This document shows, piece after piece, positions 2,685 to 38,500 of a DNA stretch of 45,829 nt (the stretch's first letter is position 1; each line of letters opens with the position of its first letter). The DNA is taken from positions 1-45,829 of IMG/VR virus record IMGVR_UViG_3300045988_073964; one strand, 5' to 3'. The position numbers and the translations under genes were made by a program. Source of the stretch: a virus. The notes beneath the pieces are model-generated. The model had not been told where the DNA came from, made no database searches, and saw only the letters and a list, made by a program, of their open reading frames with translations.

Positions 2685-3053
2685 TTATTTGCCGGACTTC
2701 GCTAGGTTGTGAACAAAATCTTCAAATAAAGTTTTCATTTCGGGCGGCAGTTTGAGATATTCCAAAAATAGATTCTTGGTAAACTCATCATCTGTCTTTA
2801 GCAGCTTGCCAACTTGCAGTGCTAATTCTTCGTTGGTCGTGTTCCTGGCACGGAACATATTTCCTTCGCCAGTACGTAGCCAATCTTCATTAACATAGAA
2901 CACACGGCAAATATCACGAATTGACCTATCAGTTATATTGTAAGTACCGTTTTCATAGTTGGCAAGCGTGGACCGTCCTATTTGCATTTTCTCTGCGAAC
3001 TCCTGCTGATTTAGTTTTAAAGCTTTGCGCAATAGCTTTAAACGCTCATTCAT
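2685..3053 (-). CDS. Xre/CI-type HTH repressor
   Basis: LKLLRKALKLNQQEFAEKMQIGRSTLANYENG is a classic HTH_3 motif. The gene sits next to int and is divergent from the early operon. Confidence 0.85.
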   Translation of the reverse strand: MNERLKLLRKALKLNQQEFAEKMQIGRSTLANYENGTYNITDRSIRDICRVFYVNEDWLRTGEGNMFRARNTTNEELALQVGKLLKTDDEFTKNLFLEYLKLPPEMKTLFEDFVHNLAKSGK

Positions 3054-3098
3054 TACAAACCACTCCTTTCTAGTGTTGCCACCAAATATTACGTGCTT

Positions 3099-3127
3099 AT
3101 TTTAACATATAAAGAAAAAAAGTACAA
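3099..3127 (-). promoter_or_regulatory. Leftward (repressor) promoter
   Basis: On the minus strand: TTGTAC, 17 nt, TAAAAT. Confidence 0.45.
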
Positions 3128-3156
3128 GAAAAATGTTTGAAATAAGAAAATACATA

Positions 3157-4417: not shown

Positions 4418-4616
4418 AAACATTGCGGTCCAGCAGGCCGCAGAGCTTCTCGGCAAGCGTCCGCAGTTTATCCGCATCGGCTTGCAGCAGAACCGCTTGC
4501 CTATCGGCGTAGCGATTCGCGGCAGCGGCCGTTGGAGTTACCACATCAGTCCAGGTGCCCTTGCAAATTATATGGGCGTTAGTCCGAAGGAGTTGGAGGG
4601 TATGCTGAATGGTTAA
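4410..4616 (+). CDS. Excisionase-family / MerR-like HTH DNA-binding protein
   Basis: AAELLGKRPQFIRIGLQQNRLPIGVAIRGSGRWSYHIS matches the Xis/AlpA-type winged-HTH pattern. Confidence 0.65.
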   Translation: MIRNIAVQQAAELLGKRPQFIRIGLQQNRLPIGVAIRGSGRWSYHISPGALANYMGVSPKELEGMLNG

Positions 4617-4761
4617 GAAAAGGAAATGCGCTGTGTGCGGCAAGGACTTGTCGCATATGAACTACTCTAAAGTAGTAGACAAGGAAAGCGGCCAGCTCGT
4701 TACCGTGTGCAGCGGTGGCGAGTGCTGGCGAAAGATGATTATGAAAGGGTGGGGAAAATGA
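4609..4761 (+). CDS. Small CxxC...CxxxC zinc-ribbon-like protein (50 aa)
   Basis: Hand-translated: MVKKRKCAVCGKDLSHMNYSKVVDKESGQLVTVCSGGECWRKMIMKGWGK. It overlaps both neighbouring genes, consistent with translational coupling. Confidence 0.45.
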   Translation: MVKKRKCAVCGKDLSHMNYSKVVDKESGQLVTVCSGGECWRKMIMKGWGK

Positions 4762-5090
4762 GCAAGACTAAAGGCTTGATAAAAGCGTTCTTGATTACCG
4801 CTATGCTGCTTGCCGGTCTTATCTTTTTGACTGGCGGCGGTGCTGCGAAAGTGGCTGCTAAGGCTCACGGCTTTTTGTTCCCAGTCTATTCGCAGGTGAA
4901 TGTAATTCATCGCGTGGCTGACGGCGATACTCTTTATGGTATCGCCTACCAGTACTCAGACAAACAGAACAAATGGGACGACCTGCGCGGTGTTGTGTGT
5001 GACATCGAGGAAGCTAACAACCTCGGCAAAAACAGAAGCTACTTACATCCGGGACAACAAATTATTGTTCCGTTGTATAACAAAATCTAA
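4758..5090 (+). CDS. Membrane-anchored LysM-domain protein
   Basis: N-terminal TM segment (LIKAFLITAMLLAGLIFL) plus a LysM motif: HRVADGDTLYGIAYQY...LHPGQQIIVPL. Confidence 0.75.
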   Translation: MSKTKGLIKAFLITAMLLAGLIFLTGGGAAKVAAKAHGFLFPVYSQVNVIHRVADGDTLYGIAYQYSDKQNKWDDLRGVVCDIEEANNLGKNRSYLHPGQQIIVPLYNKI

Positions 5091-5118
5091 TTTTATTTTT
5101 TGAAAGGAAGATGATTTT

Positions 5119-5532
5119 ATGAACATCGAAGAAATTTTACGTATGAACACCGAAGAAATTTTACGCTTAATAATTAAAGATTTTATCCGCAATGGCGGCG
5201 TTGTGCTTGCCACTAACAACGACGGACAAACTTTCGTAGGTGCCAAAGGCTCTGTGGTGAACATCACCGAGAGTTTTACGAGAACGCTCGTTAAGCTGAG
5301 CTTGACTATTATCAAAGAAAACCCCAAGGATTTTAGAATTTTCACAGCCACTGTTATAACTCATCTGCTGGCTATTGCAGAAATTGCTGAAAGTGAGTTC
5401 GGCGTACCACAACTCTCCGAACAAACGGTGCGTCTCGTCGCGGCGGCATTGCATAATAAAGACGTGGCTCGTCATGCAGTGCTTTCTGTAAAACACATGA
5501 TGAAGGAACTGGAGGGAGGAGTAGAAGAATGA
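5119..5532 (+). CDS. Hypothetical early protein
   Basis: 137-aa ORF with an SD 'gaaaggaag'. The first 48 nt are a 24-bp tandem duplication. Confidence 0.65.
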   Translation: MNIEEILRMNTEEILRLIIKDFIRNGGVVLATNNDGQTFVGAKGSVVNITESFTRTLVKLSLTIIKENPKDFRIFTATVITHLLAIAEIAESEFGVPQLSEQTVRLVAAALHNKDVARHAVLSVKHMMKELEGGVEE

Positions 5533-6482
5533 AAGGCAAACTGATTATGACGGTTGAGCAGGCGGCTGACCGTGTGGCGTGGGAACGTGTCCGCAATGGC
5601 GGCATTGGCGGCAGTGATATTGCCTGCATCATGGGATTGAATCCGTGGAAAAGTGCTTTTGCCCTCTATGCTGAAAAGCACGGAGATGTAGAAGCAGAGG
5701 ACCTTTCCGATAACGAGTATGTTTATTGGGGTACGGTTCTGGAGCAGGCTGTAGCTGACAGATTCTGTGAGCTGACCGGCAAGAAAGTCCGCAAGTGCGG
5801 CACGCTGCAAGATGAAAGCTATGAGTTCATGCTTGCGAACGTCGATAGATTAGTAGTAGGCGAAGATGCGGGACTTGAATGCAAGACCGCCAACGGCTTT
5901 AAGGCAAGCGAGTGGGACGGTGACAACCTTCCGGACTCCTATTATTGCCAGTGCCAATGGTATATGGCTATTACTGGCTGCGAGAAGTGGTACATCGCCT
6001 GCCTTATCGGCGGTAATCATTTTGTGTGGAAAGAAATTCCGCGCAATGATGAGTTTATTGCAGATATGAGAACACAAGCTATTGTGTTCTGGAATAATCT
6101 GCAAAACAACGTAGCGCCGGAAGTCGACGGCAGCGAAAGCACAACGCAAACCGTCGACAAAATTGTCGCTAGTGTTGTCGGCGCTGATGAAATCGCGCTC
6201 GGCACACAGGCCGCGCCGTTCATTGCTCGTTATCATGAGCTTGTCAAAACAGAAAAGCTCGTGAAAGAGCAGAAGCAGCAGTGCCAAAATGCACTCGCTT
6301 TAATGCTGAACGGTGCAAAGTGCGGCACATATAATAACTACCAAGTTATTAACACGCCAGTCAAAGGCCATGAAGGCATTGACCGCAAGAAACTGATGAG
6401 AGATATGCCGGACGTATACGAGAAGTATAAGACGGTAGGTAAAGACGGTTTTAGGTTTTCCATTAAGGAGGTAAAAGAATAA
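5529..6482 (+). CDS. YqaJ-like (lambda Exo family) recombination exonuclease
   Basis: GGSDIACIMGLNPWKSAFALY and the E..D..K core, immediately upstream of recT. Confidence 0.88.
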   Translation: MKGKLIMTVEQAADRVAWERVRNGGIGGSDIACIMGLNPWKSAFALYAEKHGDVEAEDLSDNEYVYWGTVLEQAVADRFCELTGKKVRKCGTLQDESYEFMLANVDRLVVGEDAGLECKTANGFKASEWDGDNLPDSYYCQCQWYMAITGCEKWYIACLIGGNHFVWKEIPRNDEFIADMRTQAIVFWNNLQNNVAPEVDGSESTTQTVDKIVASVVGADEIALGTQAAPFIARYHELVKTEKLVKEQKQQCQNALALMLNGAKCGTYNNYQVINTPVKGHEGIDRKKLMRDMPDVYEKYKTVGKDGFRFSIKEVKE

Positions 6483-7318
6483 TGGCAACTATTAACGGTA
6501 TTCAAAAAAAGGAGAATAGTAGTGCGGTAAAAGCTCCGTCGGCTTTAAGTGTGGCAATCAACAGCGCAGCAGTGCAAAAACGCTTTGAAATGATGCTCGG
6601 CGAAAACGCAGGCAGCTTCCTTTCTAGCGTACTGACGGTATGCAACAACAGCAAATTGTTGCGCAAGGCAGATTATCGCACAGTCCTTGCAGCAGCGGCG
6701 ACGGCAGCAAGCCTTAAACTTTCGATAACTCCGGATTTAGGAGAAGCGTATATCGTTCCTTATGGCGGGCAGGCGTGCTATCAAACTGGCTACCGTGGTT
6801 TAATTCAACTGGCGCAGCGTAGCTGCCGCATGAAAAAAATCATCATGACACCTGTTCGCGAGGGGGAACTTCGTAATTGGTGCGTATTTGATGAATCATA
6901 TACCTTTGGCGAAAGAATCAGCAATAAGATTGTGGGTTATTTCGCTCGTATTGAAACAACGGAAGGCTTCGAAAAGTCTGCTTATTGGACTAAAGAAGAA
7001 GTCATCGAACACGCCAAGCGCTTTAGTAAAGCATATAAGAATGGCCCGTGGCAGACGGACTTCGACGCTATGGCCTGCAAAACGGTACTTATTCCCATTC
7101 TAAAAACCTATGCTCCGAAGTCTGTTGATTTAATAAAGGCGCTTGAGAATGAAAATAAAGTAGCTTCTATGGACGAGAATACTGGCGAAGCAGAATATAT
7201 CGACGTAGATGCAAATGACGCTCAGGAAGAAGCTCACGAGCTGTCAGAGGGTAGAAGCGTTGATGTTGAAACTGGCGAAATTTTCACGGCAGAAGAGATT
7301 GAAGCAAGCATGAAATAG
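6482..7318 (+). CDS. recT: RecT-family single-strand annealing protein
   Basis: LGEAYIVPYGG...GYRGLIQLAQRS...VGYFA pattern, paired with the YqaJ exonuclease. Confidence 0.88.
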   Translation: MATINGIQKKENSSAVKAPSALSVAINSAAVQKRFEMMLGENAGSFLSSVLTVCNNSKLLRKADYRTVLAAAATAASLKLSITPDLGEAYIVPYGGQACYQTGYRGLIQLAQRSCRMKKIIMTPVREGELRNWCVFDESYTFGERISNKIVGYFARIETTEGFEKSAYWTKEEVIEHAKRFSKAYKNGPWQTDFDAMACKTVLIPILKTYAPKSVDLIKALENENKVASMDENTGEAEYIDVDANDAQEEAHELSEGRSVDVETGEIFTAEEIEASMK

Positions 7319-14293: not shown

Positions 14294-14714
14294 GGTACTA
14301 ATCACCGGCTATATTTCTAAGAATTTGAAGGTCGAAACAACTTCTACCGGTCGCGAACGTATCCAATTTGATATAGCAACGCGGCGAGATTTTAAGAGCA
14401 GCGACGGAAAATATAAGTACGATTTTCCACACGTGCAGAGCTGGAACCCAGGTATCAATAAATTTATCAAGGCGTTTTGCGACGAGGGCGCACACGTCGA
14501 GATAGAAGGCCGCTGGCAGACCGACACGTATATGGGCAAGGACAACAAGAAAAAGAAGATTGACTATATAAACCTAGAATCTTTGCGCTGCTTAGATAGA
14601 AAAGGCCCCGTGAGAAGTGGTAAAACATCTCCGGCAGGCGCAGATTTCGCTTCCATGGGACAATCAGTGGACGGTGAAGGCGATTACTCGGACGTAGAAA
14701 ATCTCGACTGGTAG
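14286..14714 (+). CDS. ssb: Single-stranded DNA-binding protein (OB fold)
   Basis: MNKVLITGYISKNLKVE...VEIEGRWQTDTY plus an acidic C-terminal tail DYSDVENLDW. Confidence 0.65.
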   Translation: MNKVLITGYISKNLKVETTSTGRERIQFDIATRRDFKSSDGKYKYDFPHVQSWNPGINKFIKAFCDEGAHVEIEGRWQTDTYMGKDNKKKKIDYINLESLRCLDRKGPVRSGKTSPAGADFASMGQSVDGEGDYSDVENLDW

Positions 14715-14727
14715 AGGACGTGAGAAC

Positions 14728-15213
14728 ATGGCAGACGTATTTACATATAAGCAGGCAGAAGAATTCGTCGAACAGCTTGCTATCGCTCGTCGTTCCATTT
14801 CTGTTGCTGTTGATTCAGCTCGTTTACAGCAAAAAGCTGAACGCTTGGAGCTAGATTATAGGCTGCGTTACAAAGACCCCACGGCAAAATTAGTGATAAA
14901 CGATTTAACGCCGCTCGCCGTTGTGCGCTGCTTCCATGAAAATCAGCCGTTTATTGTTTACCAGCCTGAAAAATGGCTGAAGGTCATTCAAGAAGCGTTC
15001 AATCTTTTTCGCCAGCGATTCGGTGACGGGCCTTATATGATTATCAAGCATCGGTTTATACGCGGATGGTCGACAAAGCATATAATGGCCGTCGATGGCG
15101 TCTCGCTTCAAACATATTCGCTGCGGCGGCAGCAATTCCTTGCCGGACTTCTGGCGCTGGCTGCCCAGAACGGACTCATTAGAATTGACTCGTCGCTTCC
15201 AAAGGATAAATAA
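14728..15213 (+). CDS. Putative late-gene transcription regulator (sigma70 region-4-like / ArpU-RinA-like)
   Basis: It is the last gene of the early operon. C-terminal MIIKHRFIRGWSTKHIMAVDGVSLQTYSLRRQQFL looks like a region-4 HTH. Confidence 0.4.
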   Translation: MADVFTYKQAEEFVEQLAIARRSISVAVDSARLQQKAERLELDYRLRYKDPTAKLVINDLTPLAVVRCFHENQPFIVYQPEKWLKVIQEAFNLFRQRFGDGPYMIIKHRFIRGWSTKHIMAVDGVSLQTYSLRRQQFLAGLLALAAQNGLIRIDSSLPKDK

Positions 15214-15246
15214 AAAAGCCGGGGTTTCACCTCGGCTTTTTGTTTT
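15213..15246. terminator. Bidirectional terminator between the early operon and the inverted cassette
   Basis: A-run, then gccgggg/cctcggc stem, then T-run. Confidence 0.7.
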
Positions 15247-15255
15247 CGCTTCTCC

Positions 15256-15636
15256 TTAAAGTATCGGGCGGCTGTTTAACTCCGCTATTTTGTTTGCAAG
15301 CTCATCGCTCGCTATCCAGCGCCCCATCGGGGACTTTGCGTTTTTAACTTTCCTAACGGCATCAGCGACTAATTTATTATAAATCGCATCGGCCTGCCAA
15401 CGGTGCAACGGCGTGCGTTCTTTTAACGTGTTGCCGTTCCACTCAGCGGGCGGGTTCCAAAGCCGCTTGTAATTGTTCGGTAGCCCAATCCTTTGTTTTT
15501 TCCAGTAATTCAGCAGGGCAAGGCGAAAAACAACAATTTTCCAATTTAACAATTTGCGTCCGCGCTCATTGTTAAATTGAACATAAATTTTCTTTTGTTT
15601 TTTTATTTCGGCGTTCAAGCCGGAAAAGTTTTTCAT
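15256..15636 (-). CDS. Hypothetical basic protein (last gene of the inverted cassette)
   Basis: 126-aa ORF. No motif recognised. Confidence 0.6.
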   Translation of the reverse strand: MKNFSGLNAEIKKQKKIYVQFNNERGRKLLNWKIVVFRLALLNYWKKQRIGLPNNYKRLWNPPAEWNGNTLKERTPLHRWQADAIYNKLVADAVRKVKNAKSPMGRWIASDELANKIAELNSRPIL

Positions 15637-15656
15637 AATGTGCCTCCTTCAAGTTT

Positions 15657-15676
15657 AACCCGGCTTGCGCCGGGTT
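15657..15676. other. GC-rich hairpin aacccggc-ttgc-gccgggtt between cassette genes
   Basis: Read directly. The T-run follows only on the plus strand. Confidence 0.5.
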
Positions 15677-15685
15677 TTTCGCTTC

Positions 15686-15883
15686 TTACAGTTCGACCAC
15701 GTCCAGATATGCACGTTGCTGCTCTGAACCTTCGATGTAGGCACGGCAGCCTTGCGCGTCACGCTGATTCAGCACATCATCTTGGGTAAAGCCGTCGTAT
15801 TCGATAACCGGCAAGCCTGCGGCGTTGCTGAAAACGCTCGCGCCTTCCGGCAGCATGAAATAAACGCGGTCGCTCGCTTCGCT
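15686..15883 (-). other. In-frame continuation (65 codons) of the 15884..16195 ORF beyond its TAA
   Basis: 15883-15686+1 = 198 nt, in the same phase. It translates to SEASDRVYFMLPEGASVFSNAAGLPVIEYDGFTQDDVLNQRDAQGCRAYIEGSEQQRAYLDVVEL. There is no SD before the internal ATG at 15856. Confidence 0.5.
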
Positions 15884-16195
15884 TTAGGCAACGGGGGCGA
15901 TGGTGTAACTTTCGTTGTATCCGCGCTTCTGGTAGTCGCGCCAGCCGGGAATGAGAACGCGGGGCGCTTCTTCGTCGTAACCGATAGTTTCGTATTGGTC
16001 GGATTCTGCCAGATATACCATAATGGGGTAAAGCTTAACGGTTTCACCTTTGATAAGGTCGCCGCTTTCGGTGCAAGCGGTCGCTTCCCAATATTCGCCG
16101 TTCCAATCGCTTTCAAAAGCTGCGTAGCGGCGGCCGTCCTCGTCGGCTGCTACAAAAAGTGCGTTGTAAACGTTGTTTGTGATTTCCTTAAACAT
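15884..16195 (-). CDS. Acidic hypothetical protein (103 aa up to the TAA)
   Basis: AGGAG SD. 19 acidic against 9 basic residues, counted by hand. Confidence 0.6.
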   Translation of the reverse strand: MFKEITNNVYNALFVAADEDGRRYAAFESDWNGEYWEATACTESGDLIKGETVKLYPIMVYLAESDQYETIGYDEEAPRVLIPGWRDYQKRGYNESYTIAPVA

Positions 16196-16276
16196 AATGT
16201 AACTCCTAAAATTTCGCTTCTGCCGTTTATATTCGACGCTGGCGGCGGCATTCCTGCCAGCGTCAAGGGTTAATTC

Positions 16277-16432
16277 CTACAAAAGGCTGAATAGATGCAG
16301 CAAGCTTACGCTGTCCCAATAAACACACTGTTGGGCGTATGTTAGATTGTCAATGCCGCCTTTAGCGTGCCACAAGCAACGCAAGGCATTGGCAAGCTTT
16401 AAGTATTGATGTTTACGCTGCTTTTTCTTCAT
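16277..16432 (-). CDS. Small hypothetical protein (51 aa)
   Basis: ATGA overlap with the stop of 16429..16647. MKKKQRKHQYLKLANALRCLWHAKGGIDNLTYAQQCVYWDSVSLLHLFSLL. Confidence 0.35.
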   Translation of the reverse strand: MKKKQRKHQYLKLANALRCLWHAKGGIDNLTYAQQCVYWDSVSLLHLFSLL

Positions 16433-16647
16433 TTCGCTTCTATGCCCCTTTCGTCGCTGATTTCGTCCGGTGCTTCTTCTGCAATAAAAGCTTTCACCGC
16501 TTCCATATCTTCGCACCATTTGCCGTTTCCACAATAATATTGCGGGCCGCCGGGGTAAAGCTGCGTAAAGATTTTTACGTCTAGGCGCTTCCCGTGCTTC
16601 CACGCCGGGTGCTCGGGTGTCAATTTGTTTATAACGGCTATTTTCAT
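16429..16647 (-). CDS. Hypothetical protein (72 aa)
   Basis: ORF with an ATGA overlap to the upstream 59-aa gene. Confidence 0.6.
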   Translation of the reverse strand: MKIAVINKLTPEHPAWKHGKRLDVKIFTQLYPGGPQYYCGNGKWCEDMEAVKAFIAEEAPDEISDERGIEAK

Positions 16648-16823
16648 TTTTGGGGCTCCTTAATTTCTGCGGTCCATTCGTTCCGGCTTTTAAAGCCTGC
16701 GGCTTCCGCTACCATAGCGGCAATGATACGGCAAGTAATATCATGTTCCGCTTCATTCATCGCCGGTTGCTTCCGGTACGCTTCAATTTTCTGCAATAAA
16801 TTTAACGCTTCTTTACGTTCCAT
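16644..16823 (-). CDS. Hypothetical protein (59 aa, below the track threshold)
   Basis: AAGGAGG SD 8 nt before ATG 16823. MERKEALNLLQKIEAYRKQPAMNEAEHDITCRIIAAMVAEAAGFKSRNEWTAEIKEPQK. Confidence 0.55.
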   Translation of the reverse strand: MERKEALNLLQKIEAYRKQPAMNEAEHDITCRIIAAMVAEAAGFKSRNEWTAEIKEPQK

Positions 16824-16927
16824 TTTATATCCTCCTTTTAAATTTTCAAGGTTTATTGGCCTGCCTCGTCAGTACCCGGGCGGCCAGTCCCGGATATACG
16901 CCGCTTTGGCGGCGTTTCGGCTATTTA

Positions 16928-17872
16928 TTATTGCAGCAGCATTGTTTCCGGGCGGTATTTCAGAAATTCGCTGCCGTGCAGGTCGCGGATTTGGTCCATG
17001 GTCAAGGTTTTGCGGATTTTCTTCACCCACTCCCCGGCGTGCCAGTACCAGAGTTTTTTCTTGTTGGCCCATTTACAGCCAGCGGCCTTTAATGTGTCCT
17101 TGACGGCTTTTGTTTCGCCGCCTATCCATAACCAGCTACCACAAATTTCGATGTCAAGGCCTTGCAAGCCCATCAGCACGGCCAGAATCTCGGTAAATTC
17201 TGCTTGCTCTGCCAGAATTTCAGCGGCGGTTTTGTATGTGCCGTCCGCTTTTTTGTTGCGCTGCCACTCTTGGCGGCTCTCTGCTTCTGCAATTTCGGCG
17301 GCGCGTTTGTCGTGCGCTGCGGTCATTGCCTTAAAGTCGGCGGCCGTGCCGCCTTTGTCCGGGTGACATTGCATACAAGCTTTTTTAAACGCTTTCTTTA
17401 ACTCCTCTATAGTCTCGCAAGCTGCGAAAAGTTTTTGCCAGTCCATTTTTTTGTCCTCCTTTTTGGGTTCCGGGTTGTATTTTTGTTGTAGCTCCTCAAA
17501 TTTTTCTTTGGTGACGCGTGCCACGTATTGCACAAATTTTCTTGTGCTGTCCCACGTGTCATAGATAACGCCGCCAACAATTGCAACGGCGTGGCCAGCG
17601 GAAAACACGATGTAGTTAGCGTCCTTGTCACAGTGTTTGGAGTAGCTGTTGACGGTTTCGCGCTGGGCGGTCGTCATTGTAACACCCAGCTCGGACAACG
17701 CAACGCGGATATTAGCGATAGAGTTCCACGGTGCGCGGCTTTCGAATACTTTGGCTTCCAGCAAGCATTTAGCCTGCTGATAGGTTAACGGGGTTGCGGT
17801 GGAGATTGCTCTAATGATACAATCTCCGATGTTCTTTCCCTCGGGGTTAGCGTTGAATTTTTGATATGCCAT
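16928..17872 (-). CDS. Fusion protein: papain-like Cys/His peptidase-like domain, J domain (HPD), and a W-rich C-terminal domain
   Basis: NIGDCIIRAIS...SAGHAVAIVGGVIYDTWDS (Cys-His-Asp arrangement). KKAFKKACMQCHPDKGG (J-domain HPD). GSWLWIGGETKAVKDTLKAAGCKWANKKKLWYWH. Confidence 0.8.
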   Translation of the reverse strand: MAYQKFNANPEGKNIGDCIIRAISTATPLTYQQAKCLLEAKVFESRAPWNSIANIRVALSELGVTMTTAQRETVNSYSKHCDKDANYIVFSAGHAVAIVGGVIYDTWDSTRKFVQYVARVTKEKFEELQQKYNPEPKKEDKKMDWQKLFAACETIEELKKAFKKACMQCHPDKGGTAADFKAMTAAHDKRAAEIAEAESRQEWQRNKKADGTYKTAAEILAEQAEFTEILAVLMGLQGLDIEICGSWLWIGGETKAVKDTLKAAGCKWANKKKLWYWHAGEWVKKIRKTLTMDQIRDLHGSEFLKYRPETMLLQ

Positions 17873-17961
17873 AATAGATTACTCTCCTTTCAATCGCTGC
17901 GGCTAGGGCTTCGGACCTTCTGCCAGGCAGCTTTACGGCCCTTGATGGGCCGCCGTCAGCT

Positions 17962-18099
17962 TTAAAAAATCAGATATACGATGTTGGTCGCGTATTGGTA
18001 GATTTCTTGCTGTGTGTCGCTCATTGCCGGATAACGGTTCATGAGCTTTGCAACCTTCAGTAATTGTTTGATTCGCAGATTCTTAATTTTCATTTTCAT
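17962..18099 (-). CDS. Possible small protein (45 aa)
   Basis: AAGGAGAG SD. MKMKIKNLRIKQLLKVAKLMNRYPAMSDTQQEIYQYATNIVYLIF. Confidence 0.3.
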   Translation of the reverse strand: MKMKIKNLRIKQLLKVAKLMNRYPAMSDTQQEIYQYATNIVYLIF

Positions 18100-18105
18100 C
18101 TCTCC

Positions 18106-18219
18106 TTATAATGCTTTGATAACGTCCGTTAGATATTGCTCTAACGTGTAATTGGGGCTTGCGGCCTCGCAAATAAGGCTGCAAGCAATGTAGATGGTGA
18201 TGATGGTTAATTTAATCAT
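18106..18219 (-). CDS. Possible small hydrophobic protein (37 aa)
   Basis: SD 'aggagatg'. MIKLTIITIYIACSLICEAASPNYTLEQYLTDVIKAL. Confidence 0.3.
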   Translation of the reverse strand: MIKLTIITIYIACSLICEAASPNYTLEQYLTDVIKAL

Positions 18220-18233
18220 TGTTGCATCTCCTA

Positions 18234-18452
18234 TTAGTATTTTTGTACGCTTGCGCCGCCGTATTCATCTAGGACAATGCCATAAAAGTGACCTTTGATT
18301 TCCAACCTAATATTTTTGACGTGGCCCGGGAATTCCGGAAAGTCTACATTCATCAGGATTTCAATGTCTTTTCGGCACGGCTGAAAACCGTATTCGCGGA
18401 ACAATGCGAGTTGTACAGTTTTGATAATGCTTGCTTTTTCAATTTTGCTCAT
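18234..18452 (-). CDS. Hypothetical protein (72 aa), first gene of the inverted cassette
   Basis: AGGAGG SD 8 nt before ATG 18452. The upstream ATG at 18515 would lie upstream of the predicted -10 element. Confidence 0.6.
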   Translation of the reverse strand: MSKIEKASIIKTVQLALFREYGFQPCRKDIEILMNVDFPEFPGHVKNIRLEIKGHFYGIVLDEYGGASVQKY

Positions 18453-18503
18453 TTTGTTACCTCCTAAACTCTTTGCGAGTTGTTTTATTGCTTTGTTGTG
18501 TCT

Positions 18504-18532
18504 ATTGTAACTCATATTGGGTTACTTGTTAA
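18504..18532 (-). promoter_or_regulatory. Leftward promoter of the cassette operon
   Basis: On the minus strand: TTAACA, 17 nt, TACAAT. The spacer contains the box aactcatattgggt (18509..18522). Confidence 0.5.
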
Positions 18533-18566
18533 TACCCTAAATTAGTTATTTTTAATTTTTTTTGCG

Positions 18567-18595
18567 TTGCTAAAAACTCACATTGGGTATATAAT
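18567..18595 (+). promoter_or_regulatory. Rightward promoter of the Xre-type regulator
   Basis: TTGCTA, 17 nt, TATAAT. The spacer contains the box aactcacattgggt (18575..18588). Confidence 0.55.
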
Positions 18596-18623
18596 GTAGA
18601 TGAGTAATTCCGGAGGTGATTAT

Positions 18624-18878
18624 ATGATTAGTAACACAATCAAAGCTATGGCTGGTCTTGCTGGATTGTCACGACAGCAGATAGCGGATAGTTTAGGCCT
18701 TGCGCGTCCGCAGGCCGTAACCAACAAGCTGGGGCGCGATAGCTGGACGGCGCAGGATGTCAATAAGATAGCGGCGTTGGCAGGCTACAAGCTAGCGTTT
18801 GTCGATGACGCTGGACGCGCCGTGTTGACGTTCCCAGCGCCAGAGCAACCAGCGCAAGCGCAGGACAAACAACAATAA
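18624..18878 (+). CDS. Xre-family HTH regulator of the cassette
   Basis: GGAGGTG SD. LAGLSRQQIADSLGLARPQAVTNKLG is an HTH motif. Confidence 0.75.
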   Translation: MISNTIKAMAGLAGLSRQQIADSLGLARPQAVTNKLGRDSWTAQDVNKIAALAGYKLAFVDDAGRAVLTFPAPEQPAQAQDKQQ

Positions 18879-18889
18879 TATAATGATTT

Positions 18890-18930
18890 GACCATTGCAG
18901 GCAGATAAGGCCTTGCAATGGTCTTTTTTT
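18890..18930 (+). terminator. Rho-independent terminator
   Basis: gaccattgca/tgcaatggtc stem followed by T7. Confidence 0.8.
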
Positions 18931-19073
18931 ATTTGTCCATAGCGGCACGCTAACAGCCGCAAATTAACCTTATTTTATTGTTTACCAAAAAATCACAATT
19001 TATCATTGATACAGTGCGTTTTTCTGACAATTATAATTATATATAAGATAATCATTTCAATCATGATTCGGTG

Positions 19074-19106
19074 GACTTAATCATAATACAGATTAAGTCT
19101 TTTTTA
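19074..19106 (+). terminator. Second rho-independent terminator in the AT-rich spacer
   Basis: gacttaatc/gattaagtc stem followed by TTTTTT. Confidence 0.6.
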
Positions 19107-19225
19107 TTTTTCCCTTATTTATATTATTACATTTGTTTATTTATTATTTTATGGTTAATTCTTAAGATGTTATTATATTGTTATTATACTAATTATGATT
19201 ATTATATTAAATGTAGGTGATTGTA

Positions 19226-32554: not shown

Positions 32555-35500
32555 ATGGAACTAGCAGAATTAGATAAAGAATTTAATCAAAGAGTACAAG
32601 AAAAGCAAAATTGGTATAATGGCGGGTACGCAAGAGACGTACAGAGCAATTTAACACCGCCGGAAGTGTTTGGCTTTATTGAAGAGCAAAAAACGGCTCA
32701 GCAGGAAGCAGCAGAAACACGAGGTTTTGGCACAGCGATGCTGAACGGTGTAAAAGGCAGTGTTCGCGGACTTTTAGGCGCTGCTAAGGCATTGGTAGAT
32801 TCTAATATCGCGGAGCATGAAAGGGAAGACCCTAACTACCGTCCATACGGAGATTTCAGCGGCACTTTGCAGACTGGCATAGATTACTTACAGCGCGAAG
32901 AAGTGAAGGCTGACAGCGCTGCAGGGCAGCTCGTGTATGACTTGACGGAGGGCGCAGTGCAGCTTGCGATGCAGGCGGCAGTAACAGCCGCTACGGGCGG
33001 CACAGCTGGCGCTGTATATATGGGCGCTAATATTGCCGGCGACCAATATATAGAGCTACGTAAAGAGGGTGTTGACGCAGAGAGGGCTGCGCTAGCAGGC
33101 TTGATGAACGCTCCTTTTCAGGCCGCACTTGAAAAAATTGGTATGGGCAAAATCATGGCGAAGCTGCCAGCAGGCTCAGGATTAAAAAAGAAGCTGGGCG
33201 AAGTCTTAAAAGCTAGTCTTGAAGAAGGCGTTACCGAAGGCCTGCAAGAATTACCGGAACAGGTTACAAATATCTGGGCGAAGGACAAAAATGCCACGGC
33301 GGAAAGCATGGCGGCGAAATGGGGCGAGAACTGGGAGCAGAATGTCAAAGAAGCAGGGTATAGTGCGTTGCTTGGCGGCATTCTTGGCGGCAGCGCTAAG
33401 GGATTGCATATAATAGCTAATAGTGTTGGGCGTAAGGTTGGCGAAAAAGTAACCGAAGTAAAAAAAGAGCAGCTTGTAGCTGATGCAGAGCGCGTAGCTA
33501 AGAGCGGAGTGAACCCTGAATACGCCGCTGCGCTCATTGATGCTAATAGTCAAGGCGAGACTGTAACCGTGCAGGCTGCTGACCTGAACGCATTTAAACA
33601 GCAGACCAACGGTGCGAAGTTGATGGAAACGCTGGGCGTGACGGAAGAACAGATTGAGCAGGCGACCGAGAACGGGCAGGATATTGATATTAGCAGAGGA
33701 CGCTTTACTGCCGCTATGGTTGAACATAAGGGCCTGTATGAAGCGACTAAGGATAGCATGATTTTCGACATTGACGGCGACCTGTCTACAAATGCCGCAG
33801 AGAATTTCAAGACGCTGAAAGCTGATACGAAAGTATCGGATGAGCAGATGCAACAGTTGGATTTAGAGGTTAAGAATGTTGTTGATAGCGCGATTGCCGC
33901 AGGCATGAACAAGGCTCACGCCGAGAATTTGCAGCTCATGCTTGAAAGCAGGGCGATTATTGCTAGTCCTGAAAATCCTGCTGCGTGGCTGCAAAAAAAC
34001 AAACTGCGGTTTGAAAATGGTGGAAAGAAGCCACTTAAAAGCGGTTGGTTTAGCCAAAGCGGTAAGCTGAATACCGACAAATTTTTTACTACTCAAATTA
34101 CAGGTAATGAATTGGGTAGTTATCGTGATTTAAAAGATTTGCGTTCTAAAGCGATAAATTGGTATAGAACAAATTTGCAGGGGCAGAAAGTAAAAAATAG
34201 CGTATTAGGTGAAATTAGAATAGGCAAGGGTTTTTCTGAAAATGACGTTGGACTTACTGGCAGCGGCAGACGCAAAATGTCTTCTACCAGCGCTAAGGCT
34301 GAAAAACTGCTTGCTGTGCGTTACCTTAAAGAAATTATTGAGGGCGGCAATTTTGTAACTGAAGCTGCTGCGCATAAAGAAAAACATTCAGGAGAGAATT
34401 TTTATTATATTCATTCTCTACTGAATGTGAATGGCGAAAATCGTTATGTAGTTGTAACCGTGAGAGAATTAAACAATAAAGAGCTTGTTTATTACAATCA
34501 CAATGTGTTTACTGAAAATGAGTATAAAAAAACAGAGGACGCGCTTAGGCCCTCGGATTCTGCAATTTCAAATGCGGGCCAGTATCCTAAGCAACAATCC
34601 TCTTTTAAAGATAGTGTAACACAAAAAGCGGACGTTTACAAGTCGCAAACGATAATAAACGGCACACTAAAGGATAAAGGCATGATTTCTCCGATGGAAA
34701 ACGGAGACTATATTATCACTTTATTCAAGGACGCAGACGCAAGTACGGTTATCCACGAGACAGGTCATTACTTTGTCGATACAATGATTAACGAGGCTAT
34801 TGCAGACCCTAGTAATACTAGATTGGTTAAAGACGCAAAAATACTGTTAGAGTACGGCGGTATGACGCTGGAACAATGGAAGAGTTCTAGTCTTGAAGAA
34901 AAGCGCGCTGCCCACGAGAAACTTGCAGAAGGCTTTGAAACCTACATCATGGAGGGTAAAGCGCCTAGCGCTGGACTGCGCAAGGCCTTTCAACGATTTG
35001 CAAAATGGCTGACGGCTATTTACTCTAAAATTGCACGCAACGAAAATGCTGCGGACATCAACGACGATGTGCGTGGAGTATTCGACCGTATGCTAGCAAG
35101 TCAAGAAGAAATAGAGATGCAGGCTAAGTTAAACGGTATGTTTAACGAATTGCCGTCGGAACTTACTAGCAAGCTGCCGCCAGAAGCTAAAAATGCCTTG
35201 CTGGATAAAATAAGCAAGGCGAAGGATAAGGCTGTAGATATTCTCACAAGGGAGATGATGAAAAATTTCAACGCAGAGCGCAGGGCCGCCAAGGCTGCGT
35301 ATATTGCAGAAATTACGCCTGAGATTGAAGAGCTTATTCATCGCGATAAGGTTAATCAAGGCAGGGACTTATTGGCGTACCATTTCGGCGGGGAAAAGGA
35401 AAAGAACAATCCGTATTTTAAAGATGAGAACGGCAAAGCTCATGCTAACAAGCCTATTAAAGTACACAGAGATGCCAATCCATCTATCATTGCGCGTAAA

Positions 35501-38500
35501 TACCGCCACGCTATTGGCAGCGTCTTGCCCAACTACAACGACGTGCTGCAAGATACCAGAGCAGCTATCAATGACAGGCTGAATCCCATTATCGAAGATT
35601 TGAAAAATAGCATTGTTGAATACAACGAAAGTCTTAGAGACGCGTGGGCGCAGGGTGGTGCAGAAGGATACTGGACGCTTGAAGGCAAAAGCATAGACCC
35701 TACAATCATCAAAGACTATGTGAAAGCTAACGGCGGAAAGTACGATGATAACGTTAGGGCAAAACTTGAAAGAGACGGCTATGTGTTTCATCCGGCAGAC
35801 GAAGAAGTGTCGGGCGGCAACTGGTACAGGAATTATGTAGAGGAAAACGGTAAAAAGAAACTTTCAAACAAAGAACTCGAAAGAATTGCACGAGATATTT
35901 ATTCTGGCAATGATTATTATGAGTATGACCCCGAAGCAAAAATGTATGAGGGAAACCCAGAATACGAAGCAGAGATACAAAACAAAAAGGCCGAACTGGA
36001 TGAACTGTATAGACTCAAAGAGAAGCTTGAAAAAACGCCCGAAGGTGTAGACCTTGTGGAGATGTCCAAGCGCAGCGCTTTGTCCGATGAGCAACGTGTA
36101 CTGTTTGAAACCATTGCTGAGGAAGTCGGGTATTCCAGCGGTGATGAAATGGCGCAGGATATTTTAAGTAAACCGTCAGAACGTCAGATGGTGCGTAACT
36201 TTGTCAACGAAGCAGTACAGGCACGTTTTCCTGATATTTACGCAGAGCGTGCGCTGACGGAAGAGAAAGCGCGTGAAGCATTGTACAACGACGAAAGCGG
36301 CGAGGTTATTGCGCTTGAGCAGCAGCTTATCGAAAGCTACTTAGATGAAGCCGTTGGCCGTCAGGAGCGCAAGCAGGAACGCATGAATATGGCTAAAGCT
36401 ATGAAGCAAAGAGCAGAGGTTGCTGCTAAAAATATTATTCAAAGTATGACTGTTGATGATATTATTAAAGGCAATGGCAGGAAGTTTATGCTGGCTGAAC
36501 GCAGGGCAGCGGCGAACGCCGTTAAAGCTATCAAAGACGGTGATATGGATGCAGCTATGGAATATAAGCGCCAGCAGCTTATTAACCATGAGTTGTACCG
36601 TCAAGCTTTGCAAGTGCGCGGAAAAGTTAAAAGTGCGCAGCGTTTTATTCGGAAAATGGCCAACATGAAGAAAGAAAATTTCGGAACGCAGCAGCATTTC
36701 AACCAGATAGCAAGTCTTTTGGAGCGCATGGGTATTAAACGCAGAGGCTACGACAGAGCAGGAGATAATCAGTTCTTGCTAGCCTATGTCGAAGAAATGC
36801 GTAGCAAATGCGGTGAAATTGTCGATATTCCGGAGTTCGTGCTGAATGAAAGCAATGACATATCCAGTCCGTCGAATCTGCTTTTCTCGCAGTATCAGGA
36901 CGTTATCAACGCTATGAAGAATATTTATGCTATTGCCAAATATGACACGAGAATGAGCAAGATGAGCAAAGAGCAAACCTTTGCTGAAACTAAGCGCGAC
37001 ATTATGGAGCATCTGCGAGAGCTTGACGACGTATATACTCCGCGTATGGGCGGCGATAGGAAGAAAGGCTTTATTAAAGGCTTTACAGACAGCATAAAGG
37101 ACTATAGAAATGTTTTGCGAAACGCTGACAACTTCTACCTTGCTATGGATAATTGGACGGACGGATATTTCACGAAAAACTGGTACGACACACTCAGCCA
37201 TTGCGCGGATGCAGAAGCTACTATGACGTTGGAATATCAGGACAAATTAGCTACAGCCTTGAAGAAATGGGAGCCGGATAAAGCGACGGCAAAAGCGCAT
37301 GACGCTGATGTGTATTACGAAGAACTCGGAACCAGTACCGACAAAAATACACTTGTCACTATGCTTTGCAATTTGGGCAATGAGGGCAATAAGAATCGCT
37401 TGTGCAGCACGCCGCCAGAGGGAGCAAAAAACTCTAAGTTGTGGGTTAAGGAGTCAGCGCTTGTCTCTAAAGAGCAGGCTATCGAAATGACACACCAGAA
37501 CATTGTAGAGTTTTTGAGCAAATATTTGACTAAGGCTGATGTTGAATATGCGCAGGCGCGTATAGATGCAGCAAATGCCTACTATCCGCAAATCAGGGAT
37601 TTAAATATCCGCGCTAAAGGCTTTGCCCCACCGGCAGTAGATGCTACGCCGATGACGATGAAGCTTGCTGACGGAAGTGTGGTTTTGTTCAAAGGCGGCT
37701 ATTTCCCACTCGTGCGCGACAGCAGAATGGGCAGTGCGCCGAACGGACAGAACAGGCTCAGCGCTACGGATGAATATCCGGGCGCAGGTATTAGCACGAT
37801 GCGGACAGATGCTGCCAGCAGCAAGGGACGTATTGGCGGCAACTATCCGGTTAAATTAGACCGTGGCTGTGAGATTACGCCTATTATGGATACTATCCAT
37901 GATATTTGCTATCGTGAAGCTATGATGGACTTCCGCAAGATTTTGAACGATGCAGAGATTTTTGCAGAGCTTAAAACTAAGCTTGGTGAGCAGAATGTGC
38001 GTCTGCTGCGTGAACAACTGGAAGCGTGCGCTAATCCGTACAGCAACAAGCAGGCTGCGCAGGCCGAAAAAATATTCTCTAAGACAGCGGACATCTTGCG
38101 CAGGACGGCTACGAACGGCGCTATCATGTTAAACTTAAAGACCGCGGCGCAGAACTTCAGCAACATCTTGCTATACGGAAACAGCGTTGAAGGATTTACG
38201 CACGCAGATGCTTTCCGCGCTATGTCACGTGCGTTCAGCGTACAGGGCAGAGCTGATGTTGATGCTATCTGCCGCAAGAGCGCCTTTATGCGTGAGCGCA
38301 TGGAAACGCCAGACGTGGCCTTGAATGACATAAAGAACCGCAAGGATTTGAATGTTGTTGAACGCAACACGTTGAAGTACGGCGCTAGGCTGCTTGGCTA
38401 CACTGATATGCTGACAGCGAAGCCGGTATTCGCAGAGGCCTACATGAAGAAAATCAACGAAGGTGCAAGCGAACAGGCAGCAATAGACTTTGCTAACCGT

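Follow-up and report, generated by a model that had tools for sequence, protein, structure and literature searches.

In the 45,829-nt stretch of viral DNA recorded as IMG/VR IMGVR_UViG_3300045988_073964 (hereafter the window, at its full length), the plus strand carries the long open reading frames (ORFs) beyond about 4 kb, with the exception of one contiguous minus-strand coding block at 15256–18515, where the AT and GC skews both change sign. The phage, a podophage, is temperate: it encodes an integrase and, outside the block, a main CI-type repressor (2685–3053). The block occupies the junction between its early module (RecT, replication organiser, RusA and SSB) and its packaging module. 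In order of transcription, the block encodes proteins of 72, 37, 43, 314, 59, 72, 169 (broken in this copy), and 126 aa; the fourth is a J-domain protein whose gene has a self-cleaving ribozyme family member on either side, and a divergent gene for an 84-aa regulator stands at the promoter end. An initial annotation of this DNA had described an inverted cassette of about 10 packed ORFs at the module junction. The inverted block, its location and an accessory-hotspot layout—most products are ORFans, and the cargo varies among relatives—were all borne out, as was the minus-strand gene set, which we count as eight genes plus one doubtful ORF in place of ten. Two ribozymes and a repeated junction motif, GAAGCGAAA, did not figure in that annotation, and the ribozymes are the most informative features of the locus. 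On balance, we think it probable that the block is a repressor-gated, self-processing accessory operon of a temperate Phascolarctobacterium podophage, conserved across one phage lineage.

An Rfam scan of the whole window at gathering thresholds returned only two matches, both on the coding strand of the cassette and filling the two gaps on either side of the J gene (16928–17872, minus strand). The upstream match is a twister ribozyme of type P5 (RF02684; 17904–17961, minus strand; 40.3 bits against a gathering score of 37.6), the first base of which directly follows the stop codon of the 43-aa gene and the last of which lies 31 nt short of the J start codon. The downstream match is a type II hammerhead (RF02276; 16855–16922, minus strand; 47.9 bits against a gathering score of 37), which begins 5 nt past the J stop codon and leaves 31 nt between its end and the 59-aa gene. 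Orthologues in related phages score 39.8–56.9 bits for the twister and 45.5–63.5 bits for the hammerhead. The conserved UAA cleavage loop and the GGUCC.AAGCCC loop are visible in the twister alignment, and the catalytic core of the hammerhead is intact (CUGACGA, GAAA (CGAAAC), and the cleavage triplet GUA). Covariation, computed on model-based alignments of all ribozyme copies found, exceeded that of all slid registers for both ribozymes, and that of all 500 shuffles on every measure (5/5) for the hammerhead and, for the twister, on at least three of the five. Helices P1, P2, and P4 of the twister are paired in 92.2% of cells, with compensatory change in 10 of 14 pairs; the corresponding values for the hammerhead are 98.7% and 9 of 16 pairs, a signal that supports stems I and III only, because stem II never varies. 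Loop I of the hammerhead can also pair with the 3′ tail in a UGCC-type pseudoknot (UGGCC/GGCCA), which appears in compensatory form as GUCC/GGAC in one relative (L016), and a pairing between loop I and the 3′ tail has been described for type II hammerheads (PMC3088659). From the family consensus, we predict cleavage between 17935 and 17934 in the twister and between 16897 and 16896 in the hammerhead; the double cut would release a J mRNA of 1,038 nt.

The relatives used for comparison are near-identical and related contigs from gut metagenomes and genomes, and the twister–J–hammerhead bracket recurs in at least 11 of them (L001, L007, L014, L015, L094–L097, L099, and L102 among others). Other arrangements also occur: a hammerhead stands at the site of the others’ twister in L016; the order is hammerhead, 212-aa gene, twister in L010, and twister, J gene, 51-aa gene, hammerhead in L011; L009 has the twister alone; and L101 has kept the twister and lost the J gene. 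Comparison of these loci indicates that ribozyme classes are exchanged at homologous sites. Just downstream of more distant J genes, we found a type II hammerhead (L046) and type P1 twisters (L030 and L017), and across IMG/VR a J gene ends 1–8 nt upstream in about 37 of the 119 stretches that carry this hammerhead subtype—a fraction that is biased upward because the hammerhead pattern was derived from this lineage.

The bracketed gene encodes a 314-aa protein composed of an N-terminal candidate papain-like domain, a J domain, and a conserved C-terminal domain, and it matches phrog_15863 over its full length. The J domain (approximately residues 145–200), already proposed in the initial annotation, is well supported: its HPD motif (H170, P171, D172) is invariant in 23 homologues, the structural model places helices at residues 155–169 and 177–199 with HPD between them, and the family profile matches solved J domains, among them those of DNAJA1, DnaJ, and polyomavirus T antigens, with E values down to 2.3e-10. 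The single 314-aa sequence scores 24.6 bits against Pfam PF00226, under the cut-off of 27.8. This signature suggests that the protein recruits host DnaK via HPD. The C-terminal domain (approximately residues 215–305; E-x-C-G-x-W-x-W...G-x-T...K...G...K..W) always accompanies the J domain of this family, and proteins of about 180 aa with only these two domains are widespread, mostly in Oscillospiraceae and other Clostridia; tblastn against a species-representative genome collection confirmed 242 loci. These loci define a family of J-domain proteins of phages that is widespread in gut Bacillota and uncharacterised.

The N-terminal domain (residues 1–135) is an add-on that some members of the lineage lack. 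Six homologues all have Cys18, His94, and Asp105, and in the AlphaFold model of the protein (predicted local distance difference test score (pLDDT) 83.7) C18 opens a helix (18–26), H94 opens a strand (94–99), and D105 ends a strand (102–105), a placement that corresponds to the papain-like arrangement. Foldseek searches of the PDB with this domain gave weak matches, to Josephin-2 (E = 0.068, probability 0.77), staphopain (0.12), and the ComA C39 domain (E = 0.56); matches in BFVD were good, to many uncharacterised phage proteins of 120–150 aa. No sequence match was found in Pfam or the PDB, profile search included. The papain-like domain suggested initially is a plausible candidate.

Of 77 loci in distant prophages, we noted that 15 have a small serine recombinase (resolvase/invertase type) beside the J-family gene and 14 have a divergent 68-aa gene with a helix-turn-helix (HTH) there; loci with one or other neighbour include L018, L019, L024, L025, L033, L036–L038, L045, L047, L063, L066, L067, L071, and L086. 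One of these, the unrelated Clostridia contig L066, also has two S-adenosylmethionine (SAM) riboswitches near its J-family gene (3065–3154 and 5643–5730), which probably belong to host genes flanking the element.

At the promoter end of the operon, the divergent regulator gene (18624–18878, plus strand, with the start set at 18624) encodes an 84-aa protein of putative Xre/CI HTH type that matches phrog_2328, annotated as a transcriptional repressor. Orthologues at the same position in relatives, 41–85% identical, match Phage_CI_repr in three of five cases (best E = 3.6e-06) and the Cro/C1-type Pfam family HTH_26 in two of five. Between this gene and the block, two promoters near the sigma-70 consensus stand back to back—TTAACA-17-TACAAT for the cassette (18532–18504, minus strand) and TTGCTA-17-TATAAT for the regulator (18567–18595, plus strand). 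Each of the two promoter spacers holds a copy of the 13-mer ACTCAYATTGGGT, which has no further exact copy in the window (45.8 kb), and we take these for putative operators: O1, ACTCATATTGGGT, in the cassette promoter (18510–18522), and O2, ACTCACATTGGGT, in the regulator promoter (18576–18588). The whole-window search found no copy of the 13-mer at the main immunity region. Since the putative sites lie in both spacers, the repressor would be expected to limit its own synthesis along with that of the cassette; their position points to an autoregulated repressor that occludes both promoters. The earlier proposal of a self-contained transcription unit with an Xre-type switch of its own is supported.

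The switch is also a unit of exchange. The promoter scaffold persists in five relatives, as TTGACA-17-TATAAT for one promoter and TATAAT/TTGCTA for the opposite one, and their spacer sequences are locus-specific and vary with the regulator allele. In L001, which is 98–99% identical to the window on either side, the segment corresponding to 18221–18845 has been replaced by a non-alignable allele that comprises the regulator, the putative operators, and the first gene as one unit; the allele of the window is found also in L094, L095, and L097.

The regulator, the 43-aa gene, the J gene, and the ribozymes occupy the same junction in every related Phascolarctobacterium podophage that we fetched. 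The closest genomic copies are in P. succinatutens CAG:287 and uncultured Phascolarctobacterium, and for one homologue of the 169-aa protein the named source is P. succinatutens; the host is Phascolarctobacterium. The cassette is 98% identical across several independent metagenomes, and a search of INPHARED phages gave no DNA similarity to the window. Mosaic breakpoints among the relatives coincide with module borders. In L096, the J region is 72% identical and its flanks 86–98% identical. The block is not a foreign island but an ancestral module of the lineage, with a conserved core (regulator, 43-aa gene, and ribozyme-bracketed J gene) and two variable slots. It is not a unit that travels among unrelated phages, the possibility for which a check had been suggested; in the related podophages fetched, the core stays at one junction. 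The position is thus conserved in related phages, as it would be for ordinary replication or nin-region genes, but homology of the products to such genes was not found.

In composition, the block differs from the rest of the phage in its codons but not in its G+C content. By eye it had been judged richer in G+C than its flanks; its value is 0.477, that of the genome 0.463, and among windows of the same length 32% are as rich or richer, which rules out a G+C island. Codon usage, by contrast, is distinct: the relative synonymous codon usage (RSCU) distance between the block and the rest of the genome is 1.34, compared with a maximum of 0.93 in a null of equally sized contiguous blocks of reference codons, and the frequencies of C and T at third positions are 0.33 and 0.18 in the block versus 0.23 and 0.29 in the remaining phage genes. 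Strand bias is ruled out as the source, in that the minus-strand lysogeny genes have the third-position C and T of other phage genes and are unlike the block. This favouring of C above T peaks in the conserved J gene and recurs in the cassettes of L007, L009, L010, and L011, whose cargo differs. Recent horizontal transfer is therefore an unlikely source, and the bias is better regarded as a standing property of the module than as a mark left by recent import; its cause may be translational selection or expression under a different regime.

The terminators that had been noted at both edges were confirmed. On the left, a bidirectional intrinsic terminator (15213–15241, both strands) with a 13-bp hairpin stem and T-runs on either strand closes the early plus-strand operon and the cassette alike. 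On the right, an intrinsic terminator past the regulator gene (18890–18923, plus strand) has perfectly complementary arms of 10 nt followed by a T-run, and a weaker A+T-rich hairpin followed by Ts lies at 19073–19100. We also considered an invertible segment and rejected it: the flanking inverted repeats are only the A/T tails of the terminators, and the cassette has no recombinase. The tail CTTTTTTATTT(A/G/T)TCC is common to the three bounding hairpins (15201–15218, 18923–18938, and 19099–19116), with one copy inverted and two direct; it is the sole repeat flanking the block and probably just reflects a common terminator design.

Upstream of the first ribozyme lie three small genes. The first (18234–18452, minus strand) occupies the promoter-proximal variable slot; its annotated 93-aa start lies upstream of the predicted transcription start, and the ATG at 18452, preceded by an AGGAGG Shine–Dalgarno (SD) sequence, gives a protein of 72 aa, in line with the orthologues of 72–73 aa called in L009, L094, and L097. 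Other relatives have unrelated small genes in this slot, often for membrane proteins. A gene for a hydrophobic peptide of 37 aa follows (18106–18219, minus strand, with an SD sequence), which differs from its counterpart in L007 by 10 synonymous and 2 nonsynonymous codons. The conserved gene for a basic 43-aa protein (17962–18093, minus strand) stands directly upstream of the twister and J gene in most relatives; the protein is 83–100% identical in L001, L007, L009, L014, and L015, with 10–13 synonymous versus 3–6 nonsynonymous codon differences.

Downstream of the hammerhead, the distal slot begins with a 59-aa gene (16644–16823, minus strand; SD sequence AGGAGG) that is called in all close relatives and a 72-aa gene (16429–16647, minus strand, with an SD sequence) that differs from L096 by 8 synonymous and 2 nonsynonymous codons. 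By these comparisons, the small genes tested (37, 43, and 72 aa) show purifying selection. Two ATGA overlaps had been read as signs of translational coupling. The one at 16644–16647 does join two real genes, those of 59 and 72 aa; the other, at 16429–16432, leads into a doubtful 51-aa ORF (16277–16432, minus strand) that alone among the cassette genes lacks an SD sequence, differs from L096 by 3 nonsynonymous and 1 synonymous codons, and is uncalled in full-length relatives. The next gene (15686–16195, minus strand) encodes an acidic protein of 169 aa (net −18) and is split in the window into ORFs of 103 and 56 aa; these are one gene, because contigs 99% identical to the window read TAC at the break, through to 169 aa. 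A full-length copy that is 78% identical is present in L014, the family comprises 55 homologue clusters, mostly of 169 aa, and the AlphaFold model is unusable (pLDDT 38.5). Several database entries of this family are also shortened, to 95–119 aa. The last gene (15256–15636, minus strand; SD sequence GGAGG) encodes a basic protein of 126 aa (net +17) with 18 homologue clusters, all on prophage contigs of Phascolarctobacterium type, and every contig examined for homologues of the 169- or 126-aa protein carried the same prophage lineage. The products of 59, 72, 169, and 126 aa had no match in Pfam, NCBIfam, or PADLOC and nothing beyond noise in PHROGs; profile searches of the PDB returned nothing for the 169-aa or 126-aa family, and tblastn of these two proteins against INPHARED phages likewise. 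As far as these searches reach, the distal cargo genes are lineage-restricted ORFans.

The leader of the 169-aa gene contains a conserved 9-bp hairpin (16235–16264, minus strand). Divergent relatives retain it ahead of the gene; two clades differ in it by 3 compensatory pairs, and the GAAUAU..GGCAGAAGCGA downstream of it does not vary. The hairpin had no Rfam match at E<=1, and a pseudoknot that we considered in this element received no support from covariation, with the sequences read by eye. Because it shares an operon with two ribozymes, the hairpin may be another RNA-processing element.

The boundaries of the distal genes are marked by the 9-mer GAAGCGAAA, which has 9 copies in the window against 1.05 expected (none of 100 shuffles reached 9). 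Four minus-strand copies mark every distal gene boundary—at the end of the 72-aa cargo gene (16432–16440), upstream of the 169-aa gene (16212–16220), just after it (15677–15685), and just after the 126-aa gene (15244–15252)—and further copies lie at 14645–14653 (minus strand) and at four places on the plus strand. The alignment of L007 with the window breaks off at the copy at 16212 and picks up again at that at 15677, so that L007 equals the window minus the 169-aa gene; this looks like a deletion by recombination between two copies and suggests that the motif is a recombination joint for cassette exchange. Two chimeric homologues (P0079 and P0082) were seen besides: one joins the N-terminus of the 59-aa protein to the C-terminal two-thirds of the 169-aa protein, and in the other the N-terminus of the 72-aa first gene is fused likewise to the C-terminal part; they are evidence of illegitimate recombination inside the cassette. 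The cargo itself differs widely, with genes for 211, 107, and 57 aa in L007, for 212, 165, 63, and 134 aa in L010, and for 51, 107, 263, and 98 aa in L011, and none in L009, L015, and L016. The distal part thus appears to behave as an array of exchangeable gene cassettes.

The initial annotation saw in this layout a possible defence or anti-defence island, which remains conjecture, no convincing PADLOC model match having been obtained. In PADLOC-DB 2.0, only a marginal, partial match was found, of the J region to PtuB (E = 1.4e-4, 19.5 bits), and the other nine cassette products had no match; Pfam, PHROGs, NCBIfam, and PADLOC together gave nothing for 8 of 10 products. In the early operon, on the other hand, genes of 66–67 aa in L009 (11189–11392) and L100 (11022–11222) match the Acb2/Tad1 hairpin family of anti-defence “sponge” proteins, and because of these genes we place the recognisable counter-defence genes of the lineage in that operon, not in the cassette. 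The early operon of L098 also includes an 801-aa DNA cytosine methylase with an intein (4543–6948; Pfam Hint_2, intein splicing), the orthologues of which in other relatives have 361–442 aa.

Much of this has precedents. For prophage ribozymes that lie on either side of one gene or a few, a role in processing long phage transcripts has been proposed (PMC3088659; PMC6765202), and clustered prophage hammerheads cleave in vitro and in E. coli (PMC3088659). Twisters and hammerheads share unexplained gene neighbourhoods and appear interchangeable, and the bacterial or phage role of small self-cleaving ribozymes is an open question (PMC6765202). Like those prophage clusters (PMC3088659; PMC6765202), the ribozymes described here sit in operon gaps and bracket a gene or short block; unlike them, the pair is mixed (a twister upstream, a hammerhead of type II downstream), the gene in between consistently encodes a J-domain protein throughout a large phage lineage, and the operon has a defined repressor, operators, and promoter, as predicted above. 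A full-text literature search, the scope of which did not extend to the gene lists of the discovery papers, found no paper that joins twister ribozyme, hammerhead, and DnaJ. For the protein, the precedent is Rki, the J protein of the T4-like phage RB43, a DnaK-binding protein made early that helps the phage to grow and is toxic when produced alone (PMC3486835). Both are phage J domains with HPD in an otherwise orphan sequence; unlike Rki, the present family has its own conserved C-terminal domain, plus a Cys/His domain in this phage, and is found in temperate phages of gut Bacillota, flanked by ribozymes and predicted to be repressor-controlled.

Two well-known operon types also invite comparison on general grounds. 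The immI region of P22 (mnt/arc–ant) is a second regulatory cassette with a small divergent repressor, a strong promoter, and a short operon; the present cassette is likewise a second regulatory cassette of a temperate podophage outside the main immunity region, but has no Mnt, Arc, or Ant match in Pfam or PHROGs, and its payload is a J-domain protein with variable cargo. In acr–aca operons, a strong promoter is checked by a small HTH protein encoded at the locus, and the cargo consists of small, fast-evolving, shuffled ORFans. A promoter that is predicted to be HTH-checked here and small shuffled ORFans at a fixed genome position are shared features, whereas the regulator here is divergent instead of being the last gene, no Acr or anti-defence homology was found, and the conserved core is a predicted co-chaperone, not an inhibitor. 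What is already known, then, is that the ribozyme families are curated, that prophage genes can be flanked by ribozymes (2011), and that one phage J protein has been characterised; what appears to be new is the consistent pairing of twister and hammerhead around a J-domain gene inside an operon predicted to be repressor-controlled, the natural swaps of ribozyme class at the same site, and a cargo array driven by a junction motif.

The sequences show directly the anatomy of the locus, its conserved position, the family membership of the ribozymes with their covariation, the J-domain signature, and the mosaicism. In the sequence of events that we infer—repression, cleavage in vivo, DnaK binding, timing of expression, and biological pay-off alike—the 84-aa protein would bind the 13-bp site in the spacer of each back-to-back promoter. 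When the phage infects or is induced, the cassette promoter, being near consensus, would be active until repressor has built up. The polycistronic transcript would then cut itself at the twister and the hammerhead into three RNAs: an upstream message for the small proteins, the 1,038-nt J mRNA with a 5′-OH and a 2′,3′-cyclic phosphate, and the distal cargo mRNA, with every cleavage product ending in a ribozyme hairpin. Through this self-cutting into separate RNAs, the stability and translation of the J gene would be uncoupled from those of its neighbours. The J protein would recruit host DnaK (Hsp70) through HPD, with the conserved C-terminal domain picking the client or site and the fused Cys/His papain-like domain possibly contributing, and the net effect would be a redirected host chaperone; the distal ORFan cargo would be swapped by recombination at GAAGCGAAA. 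We propose a repressor-limited promoter because of the promoter and operator anatomy, a self-cut transcript because of family membership, covariation, and the prophage hammerhead precedent (PMC3088659), and DnaK recruitment because of the HPD signature and the Rki precedent (PMC3486835). A bolder version can be imagined, in which the twister/hammerhead pair is a dosage and timing device for a toxic chaperone-hijacking protein; the ends of the J mRNA escape 5′-end-dependent decay, or an RtcB-type ligase circularises the RNA; the whole is an undescribed host-takeover or counter-defence module in which a J protein fused to a Cys/His hydrolase redirects DnaK; the distal genes are exchanged via the 9-nt junction motif; and the hairpin at 16235–16264 could be an RNA-processing element of a new class. 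Taken in its entirety, this version is quite unlikely.

Several observations weigh against even the more cautious account of a repressor-gated, self-processing operon. L101 keeps the cassette without the J gene, and L009, L015, and L016 lack the distal cargo; because relatives variously lack one or the other, no single component is indispensable to the phage. The regulator of the window had no Pfam match above threshold, its assignment coming from the orthologues, and the twister copy in the window clears its gathering score by a margin of 2.7 bits, with relatives reaching 56.9. In most distant prophages with the J family, no ribozyme was detected near the J gene, and a crude scan of these prophages for ribozyme-like motifs placed 4 near J genes versus 9 far from them, a weak enrichment. 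The papain-like assignment, plausible on the model, comes from weak fold matches (best E = 0.068) and residue geometry, and a TAC>TAA nonsense mutation (15884–15886, minus strand) breaks the 169-aa gene in the window. Such a mutation, with the absence of the J gene or distal cargo in some relatives, might be expected of a decaying remnant without current function, a view we find barely credible given the purifying selection on the small genes, the compensatory changes that keep the ribozyme helices, the near-consensus promoters across divergent relatives, and the 98% identity of the cassette in several independent metagenomes. The ribozyme-delimited J unit could be semi-autonomous, as a circular RNA ligated by an RtcB-type enzyme or as a mobile gene cassette with ribozyme borders. 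The ribozymes do abut gene borders, 0–5 nt past the upstream stop codons; in L096, exchange of the J allele has been independent of the flanking DNA; many IMG/VR contigs have a J gene with this hammerhead subtype behind it; and some distant J genes adjoin small serine recombinases (15 of 77 loci). The cassette of the window, however, has no recombinase, its flanking inverted repeats are only terminator A/T tails, the ribozymes of L010 and L011 bracket other genes or gene pairs, and circular or spliced products were sought for prophage hammerhead clusters and not found (PMC3088659), all of which makes a semi-autonomous unit very improbable indeed.

Another reading is a moron or defence island expressed from the prophage: in the lysogen, the regulator would hold the cassette at a low, steady level, and the cargo, small membrane proteins, and J protein would block superinfecting phages by exclusion or abortive infection. 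Autonomous promoters and terminators are the classic moron layout, the promoter-proximal slot often holds small hydrophobic or membrane proteins (the 37-aa peptide, 57 aa in L001, and 79 aa in L010), hypervariable cargo sits at a fixed hotspot, and the preference for NNC codons, unlike the rest of the phage, could reflect expression in a growing host. An operator in the spacer of a near-consensus promoter nonetheless suggests tight repression and not constitutive expression, PADLOC contributed nothing apart from the one marginal, partial match, and the one phage J protein that has been characterised works at an early stage of lytic growth (PMC3486835); we regard an island of this kind as unlikely, if worth taking seriously. 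The switch could also be viewed as a second immunity region of the P22 immI type, with the regulator in the role of Mnt and a product that serves as antirepressor or induction modulator against the main CI-type repressor (2685–3053), which might be inactivated via DnaK or the Cys/His domain. This would suit a podophage that is temperate and encodes an integrase and, at another place in its genome, a CI-type repressor, as well as a small divergent repressor and strong promoter outside the main immunity region, the swapping of regulator, operators, and first gene as a unit between near-identical phages, and the divergent HTH gene beside the J gene in 14 of 77 distant prophage loci. Yet no cassette product matched the Ant, KilA, Bro, or Arc/Mnt families in Pfam or PHROGs, the operator 13-mer is not at the main immunity region, and the first gene varies among unrelated proteins, unlike an Arc-like co-regulator, so that we consider an immI-type region highly unlikely.

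The lineage offers an unusually clean case—one identifiable gene, for a predicted DnaK co-chaperone, between two ribozymes and under a recognisable switch—and its natural variants swap the twister for a hammerhead, shift the bracket to a neighbouring gene, or lose the J gene. Cultured isolates of Phascolarctobacterium exist, and genome assemblies of the genus carry prophages of this lineage. The purpose of self-cleaving ribozymes in bacteria, a long-standing question, is directly testable here.

Two further observations concern other parts of the genome. A 161-aa gene upstream of the cassette was considered as a late activator and set aside, as there was only a weak HTH signal, in one orthologue; a profile search of its product against the PDB gave nothing. 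In the structural module, a single ORF of 2,213 aa extends over 32555–39196 on the plus strand.

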